Shown here: piece after piece, positions 925 through 1,619 of the stretch
How the letters are laid out: every line of letters begins with the position of its first letter
How positions within the stretch are numbered: position 1 is the stretch's first letter
From: Escherichia phage T7
Strand: one strand, 5' to 3'
DNA: 37,603 nt
Sequence record: PV223881
Translations under genes and position numbers: made by a program
The notes under the pieces: model-generated
What the model saw: the letters and a program-made list of their open reading frames with translations, nothing else
Told to the model about the DNA's origin: nothing
Databases searched by the model: none

Positions 925-1320
925 ATGGCTATGTCTAACATGACTTACAACAACGTTTTCGACCACGCTTACGAAATGCTGAAAGAAAACATCCGTTATG
1001 ATGACATCCGTGACACTGATGACCTGCACGATGCTATTCACATGGCTGCCGATAATGCAGTTCCGCACTACTACGCTGACATCTTTAGCGTAATGGCAAG
1101 TGAGGGCATTGACCTTGAGTTCGAAGACTCTGGTCTGATGCCTGACACCAAGGACGTAATCCGCATCCTGCAAGCGCGTATCTATGAGCAATTAACGATT
1201 GACCTCTGGGAAGACGCAGAAGACTTGCTCAATGAATACTTGGAGGAAGTCGAGGAGTCGCACGACAGAAAGAAATTGACCGCGCTAAGGCCCGTAAAGA
1301 ACGTCACGAGGGGCGCTTAG
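925..1320 (+). CDS. 0.3: Ocr (gene 0.3 anti-restriction DNA mimic) with altered C-terminus from a deletion junction
   Basis: First ~112 aa match T7 Ocr ([19 protein letters not shown]...[11 protein letters not shown]); acidic tail replaced by [20 protein letters not shown] read out of frame from 0.7 DNA. Confidence 0.85.
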
Positions 1321-1619
1321 AGGCACGCAGATTCAAACGTCGCAACCGCAAGGCACGTAAAGCACACAAAGCTAAGCGCGAAAGAATGCTTGCTGCGTGG
1401 CGATGGGCTGAACGTCAAGAACGGCGTAACCATGAGGTAGCTGTAGATGTACTAGGAAGAACCAATAACGCTATGCTCTGGGTCAACATGTTCTCTGGGG
1501 ACTTTAAGGCGCTTGAGGAACGAATCGCGCTGCACTGGCGTAATGCTGACCGGATGGCTATCGCTAATGGTCTTACGCTCAACATTGATAAGCAACTTGA
1601 CGCAATGTTAATGGGCTGA
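1260..1619 (+). pseudogene. 0.7: Gene 0.7 (protein kinase / host shutoff) 3' remnant; N-terminal kinase part deleted
   Basis: ORF 1386..1619 encodes the gp0.7 C-terminus (...[36 protein letters not shown]); no N-terminal domain or native start present. Confidence 0.75.

Follow-up and report, generated by a model that had tools for sequence, protein, structure and literature searches.

The closest known counterpart of the deletion considered here is Studier's H1, which spans positions 1256-2735 of T7, is flanked by 12-bp repeats AGGAAGTCGAGG and appears spontaneously when the phage is grown in rich medium (Isaev et al. 2020, PMC7261183). H1 joins Ocr in frame to the last 121 residues of gp0.7, giving a protein of 231 aa, and the phage carrying this 0.3-0.7 fusion overcomes EcoKI, and BREX only partly (PMC7261183). 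Derivatives of the H1 phage that escape BREX either have a stop codon soon after the fusion enters gene 0.7 or carry an ectopic Ocr(1-110) followed by 11 residues, and these forms, selected on BREX+ cells, are fully active (PMC7261183). We found the 231-aa fusion on 53 public contigs and in the CiPGr-derived T7 isolates MZ375235 and OL964750, where it is formed by a 1,480-bp in-frame junction and is labelled 'protein kinase' even though it lacks the kinase domain.

The same hotspot has also been used one 9-bp repeat unit further along. A 1,489-bp in-frame deletion was found in laboratory heat-adaptation lines (PMC8923235), and the Yersinia phage YpP-Y (NC_047939, 35025-35711) encodes an in-frame, 228-aa fusion of Ocr to the C-terminal part of gp0.7 with the junction LEEV/ARQ. 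YpP-Y is a naturally occurring member of the T7 group that infects Yersinia pestis. Its fusion therefore indicates that the kinase is lost, and the shut-off domain kept in fused form, outside the laboratory as well.

The window analyzed here, a stretch of 37,603 nucleotides deposited as Escherichia phage T7 (PV223881), has in common with H1 the AGGAAGTCGAGG repeat pair, the loss of genes 0.4, 0.5 and 0.6A/B and of the kinase domain, and the retention of DNA for the gp0.7 C-terminus. Whereas H1 is a spontaneous, in-frame deletion of 1,480 bp that yields a 231-aa Ocr(1-110/111)-gp0.7(239/240-359) fusion, the deletion in the window is 1,481 bp long, primer-encoded and frameshifted, and it leaves an Ocr of 131 aa, the last 20 of which form a basic tail, together with a shut-off remnant that is probably silent. 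The YpP-Y and 1,489-bp deletions differ from it in the same respects, being in frame, natural or spontaneous, and still fusing the shut-off domain to Ocr. The deletion in the window is already known and published, and it is designed on the model of H1; the sole addition made here is the one-base offset that separates it from the spontaneous in-frame fusions.

The junction between ocr and gene 0.7

Positions 1-1258 of the window are identical to T7 1-1258 (100% identity; blastn against wild-type T7, NC_001604), and T7 2737 onward corresponds to the window from 1256 onward. The earlier note had estimated that about 1481 bp were missing, and the alignment gives exactly 1,481 bp, T7 1257-2737 in the numbering of the designers. 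Because AGT (window 1256-1258) is common to both flanks, 1257-2737 and 1259-2739 are equivalent descriptions of the missing bases, and the deletion point in the window is 1256/1257 or, equivalently, 1258/1259. The blastn output places a 1-nt gap here in addition to a 1,480-bp deletion, and we considered whether it marked a separate frameshift. That reading was rejected since the gap lies at the junction and a single 1,481-bp event accounts for both. The alignment is deterministic and involves no statistical signal, and therefore chance is not an issue.

A side-by-side comparison of T7 1230-1290, T7 2710-2770 and window 1230-1290 shows that the junction lies in a hybrid copy of an imperfect direct repeat, AGGAAGTCGAGGA(GT), at 1244..1258 on the plus strand, with T7 1256 joined to T7 2738. 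The left parental copy is AGGAAGTCGAGGA-GT (T7 1244-1258) and the right one is AGGAAGTCGAGGAAGT (T7 2724-2739). By our own reading the repeat encodes EEVEE in the same frame in both genes, corresponding to residues 107-111 of Ocr and 235-239 of gp0.7. Each endpoint thus falls within a copy of the direct repeat AGGAAGTCGAGG, one in ocr and one in gene 0.7, as in H1, and the two alleles can be told apart by their junction letters, which are GAGGAGTCGCAC for the 1,481-bp allele and GAGGAAGTCGCAC for H1.

Measured against the T7 annotation, the deletion removes genes 0.4, 0.5 and 0.6A/B, E. coli promoter B and gp0.7 codons 1-239. Gene 1, which encodes T7 RNA polymerase, is intact (1690..4341, plus strand) and lies directly downstream of what is left of gene 0.7, with the spacer that holds E. 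coli promoter C retained. The alignment to wild-type T7 agrees with the earlier note's description of a deletion running from the end of ocr into gene 0.7 and taking genes 0.4, 0.5 and 0.6 and the kinase domain with it: the 0.4-0.7 region is not intact and the tail of ocr is not the native one.

The designed origin of the deletion

The deletion is almost certainly the designed 'gp0.4-0.7' deletion of the genome-reduced synthetic chassis T7-B, the window being its derivative T7-B-G. Table S2 of the SMART paper (mBio 2025, PMC12153263) lists the deletion as "gp0.4-0.7, 1,257-2,737, 1,481 bp", and the same paper describes T7-B-G, accession PV223881, as a T7-B derivative in which the gp7.7 locus holds a 1.6-kb PT7-lysGH15 cassette. 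In the SMART design the T7 genome is divided into ten BAC-cloned segments, and the omitted piece, F2 (S1-2), is 1.5 kb from the middle of the first segment and covers genes 0.4 to 0.7 (PMC12153263). F2 was left out of both T7-A and T7-B because earlier work had found this 1.5-kb region dispensable (PMC12153263). The supplement of that paper prints the primer pBAC-T7-S1-3-F, which consists of CAGAAGACTTGCTCAATGAATACTTGGAGGAAGTCGAGGA followed directly by GTCGCACGACAGAAAGAAAT; it fuses T7 1217-1256 to T7 2738-2757, and its junction is exactly that of window 1217-1276. The junction is spelled out in a cloning primer, and it was therefore synthesized and not selected.

The forward primer of F3 had the last 40 nt of F1 (T7 1217-1256) attached directly to T7 2738 onward, so that ExoCET recombination joined F1 to F3 and skipped F2. 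The design follows Studier's spontaneous H1 between the AGGAAGTCGAGG repeats, with one base more removed; ocr thereby enters the +1 frame of gene 0.7, adds 20 mostly basic residues and stops.

An alternative is that the deletion arose spontaneously during laboratory passage, through replication slippage at, or recombination between, the short direct repeats as in H1, and reached 1,481 bp either through a crossover in the GT that follows the 1-nt indel of the repeat or through a second, 1-bp deletion. The endpoints do lie within known hotspot repeats, deletions recur here at 1,480 and 1,489 bp, and an imperfect 15/16-nt repeat would in principle permit a 1,481-bp crossover. We nevertheless consider this origin very improbable, since the occurrence of the junction in a synthetic primer and in a table of designed deletions essentially refutes it. 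A transgene and six further designed deletions accompany the junction, and across the matches listed in the phage collection, IMG/VR, JGI and a 15-billion-protein collection the 1,481-bp allele was found only in SMART phages.

The remainder of the window bears the same signature. Whole-window blastn against NC_001604 (39,937 bp) gave co-linear blocks of 99.7-100% identity with seven gaps and one insertion. The intervals removed according to Table S2 (PMC12153263) are T7 1257-2737, 7609-7764, 8198-8733, 11268-11558, 13279-14297, 16484-16821 and 20109-20208, and the six chassis deletions other than the one under study (1.4, 1.7, 3.8, 4.3-4.7, 5.3 and 7.7) are all present, with gene 19.5 intact. 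The window junctions for the lost 1.4, 1.7, 3.8, 4.3-4.7 and 5.3 are at 6127/6128, about 6553-6561, about 9088-9095, about 10788-10814 and 13000/13001, respectively. Several of these five junctions lie on microhomology of 7-27 bp. Inside gene 7.7, T7 20109-20208 is replaced by a 1,587-bp transgene (window 16288-17874) composed of a T7 promoter, an s10 leader and ribosome-binding site copied from T7 22923-22970, a His6 tag and lysGH15. The LysGH15 ORF, for the endolysin of Staphylococcus phage GH15, occupies 16351-17874 and encodes 507 aa.

Subtraction of the seven Table S2 intervals from NC_001604 leaves 36,016 bp, from which the window differs by the 1,587-bp insert and 19 substitutions (4830, 7781, 11458, 15859, 20441, 21754, 21805, 21904, 22012, 24701, 25449, 25556-25557, 26924, 29457, 32641, 32920, 32924 and 35075). 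These single-base differences are concentrated in the late (structural) genes, and since all 19 are common to PV223880, they presumably stem from the T7 stock of the laboratory. Without its insert the window has no differences from PV223880, which is deposited as 'recombinant T7-B', and the 36,016 bp of that backbone and the 1,587 bp of the insert add up to the 37,603 of the window. The design of the chassis appears to copy naturally occurring junctions elsewhere too. Heat-adapted T7 carries a deletion at T7 13,278 whose size equals that of the 1,019-bp 4.3-4.7 deletion (PMC8923235 Table 2), and it is from this match with T7 13279-14297 that the copying of natural junctions is suggested.

Could the base that sets the window apart from H1 be a sequencing, assembly or deposition error, the real phage having the in-frame 231-aa fusion? 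The two alleles differ by a single A in a GGAAG context, and the depositors left the region unannotated, so a mistake would pass unnoticed. The primer in the supplement, however, has the 1,481-bp junction, Table S2 states 1,481 bp, three independently deposited genomes agree, and the region has no long homopolymer. An error of this kind is thus more improbable still than a spontaneous origin. Among the matches listed in the phage collection, the contiguous junction without the extra base was present only in PV223880, PV223882 and PV223883. Neither the 1,480-bp nor the 1,481-bp junction was found in IMG/VR or JGI metagenome contigs, and there is therefore no sign of either allele in these environmental data. 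The structural reading of the earlier note stands within this designed origin, which, together with the H1 hotspot, was absent from it.

Ocr with a rewritten tail and the gene 0.7 remnant

The altered ocr (gene 0.3) occupies 925..1320 on the plus strand, ends at a TAG at 1318-1320 and encodes 131 aa, of which residues 1-111 are Ocr and the last 20 an out-of-frame tail. Its translation is identical to that of wild-type Ocr (117 aa) up to residue 111. The earlier note was right about the new tail and one residue off in its boundary, which it had put at about residue 112. The tail is read from gp0.7 DNA (T7 2739-2798; window 1258..1317, plus strand) in the +1 frame. The end of Ocr is rewritten, and not fused to gp0.7, for one reason only: the engineered deletion exceeds H1 by a single base. 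That a basic tail replaces the acidic C-terminus of Ocr, as had been noted earlier, is borne out by the net charge of the tail, which goes from -5 (YEEDEE) to +5, and that of the monomer goes from -28 in the wild type to -18. The 131-aa product had no exact match in the 15-billion-protein collection.

The Ocr domain is unaffected by these changes. Pfam PF08684 (ocr) is complete in the altered protein (residues 3-103, profile positions 1-101/101, E=1.9e-64; 214.9 bits against a cut-off of 25), and its residues 1-111 are identical to those of PDB 1s7z. Ocr109 and Ocr99, which lack the last 7 or 17 residues, bound M.EcoKI very tightly and blocked restriction, and Ocr109 did not block modification in vivo (Roberts et al. 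2012, PMC3439906). These are plain truncations to which no basic extension was added, in contrast to the 20-aa basic tail of the altered Ocr. Closer in form are the BREX-escape versions of Ocr, which are likewise short, have lost the native acidic tail and are no longer joined to the gp0.7 moiety; the altered Ocr came about by design, and its 20-aa tail is longer, different and basic. Since the Ocr domain is complete, Ocr99 and Ocr109 block restriction, and Ocr(1-110) with a foreign tail is active against BREX, the Ocr core (residues 1-111) is likely, by analogy, to be active against type I restriction and BREX; the earlier note's view that the phage keeps anti-restriction is thus a reasonable supposition. 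Judged in the same way, the altered Ocr may possibly act better against BREX than the H1 fusion does.

One way in which an Ocr-shut-off fusion might be restored is programmed -1 frameshifting. This was considered and set aside, as inspection by eye found no canonical X XXY YYZ slippery heptamer between 1236 and 1320.

The remnant of gene 0.7 (1257..1619, plus strand) is 100% identical to T7 2738-3100; it holds codons 240-359 and the stop codon, lies in a different frame from ocr and has no start of its own. The kinase domain of gp0.7 comprises residues 1-242 and the shut-off/DNA-binding domain residues 243-359 (PMC13645617). Removal of codons 1-239 thus takes essentially the whole kinase domain, almost exactly to the domain boundary, and the 120 codons kept (window 1257-1616) are essentially the shut-off/DNA-binding domain, with its DNA intact. 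The remnant matches PHROG 2828 ('serine-threonine kinase') at profile positions 242-366 only, consistent with the earlier proposal that the kinase is gone and the C-terminal shut-off part stays; it has no Pfam match.

It had also been proposed that only the C-terminal ~77-120 codons of gp0.7 are left, without an obvious native start. The upper figure is the retained 120 codons, and the lower one corresponds to the longest ATG-initiated ORF in the 0.7 frame (1386..1619, plus strand), which begins at gp0.7 Met283 and encodes 77 aa. This ATG at 1386 is the first in frame and comes after most of residues 240-282, a basic stretch of net charge +15. The Shine-Dalgarno pairing predicted for it is essentially nil, at -0.8 kcal/mol; 13 genuine T7 starts range from -5.3 to -12.7, and the median over all ATGs in the window is -3.0. 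From these sequence features the 77-aa ORF is probably without useful translation, and the gp0.7 remnant as a whole is most probably not expressed. Accordingly, the phage is predicted to lack the kinase, shut-off activity and genes 0.4-0.6. Of the products lost, gp0.4 inhibits FtsZ and gp0.6 inhibits MreB.

The 77-aa remnant ORF also occurs on T7 contigs in Logan assemblies SRR19213840, SRR19213831 and ERR9794610-19. We asked whether these were independent frameshift alleles and rejected the idea, as all of them carry a different and larger deletion, T7 579-2735 (578 joined to 2736), which shares its right endpoint with H1 and removes promoters A2/A3, ocr and genes 0.4 to 0.7N. We suspect that these contigs are display vectors of the T7Select type.

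Possible consequences for the T7-B chassis

The effect of the deletion on ocr appears not to have been considered by the designers. The SMART paper (PMC12153263) neither mentions gp0.3 nor discusses the one-base offset in its main text, and its Table S3 lists gp0.3 as a hypothetical protein. In the records of T7-B and T7-B-GJ (PV223880 and PV223882) no CDS is annotated between the terminal repeat (1-160) and gene 1 (1690), which leaves both the altered ocr and the gp0.7 remnant unannotated. It is because gp0.3 is absent from the main text, 'hypothetical' in Table S3 and unannotated in the deposits that the effect on ocr seems to have been overlooked. The coordinates 1257-2737 could not be traced to the main text of the CiPGr paper, which gives none (PMC9825161); the extra base may have been meant by the designers or may stem from coordinates read off an ambiguous alignment.

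We regard it as conceivable, if somewhat doubtful, that the one-base difference from H1 was both unintended and of consequence for the phenotype of the chassis. If so, Ocr would be uncoupled from the basic shut-off domain of gp0.7, the toxic shut-off domain would be removed altogether, and T7-B would have a better anti-BREX and anti-restriction capacity than H1-type stocks. Alternatively, Ocr could be weakened by the +5 tail folding back onto its acidic DNA-mimic surface. Both outcomes would be relevant to the host range of therapeutic phages built from the chassis. GB05-dir is believed to lack a type I restriction system. The phage was handled only on this strain and BL21(DE3), which served for cloning, rebooting and propagation (PMC12153263).

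The T7 kinase broadly disarms bacterial defence systems, according to a 2026 study (PMC13645617). The scientific weight of the present deletion is small: its engineering is documented, and the hotspot that it copies was recognized about fifty years ago. It does show that shifting the coordinates of a deletion by one base is enough to replace an in-frame fusion with a frameshift, and the consequence for anti-defence capacity would, as far as the sequence suggests, be modest, in a chassis meant for therapeutic engineering. The chassis is without the kinase and genes 0.4-0.6 and carries an unannotated ocr allele; the effective host range of phages built on T7-B may therefore be narrower among wild E. 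coli than BL21 data suggest.
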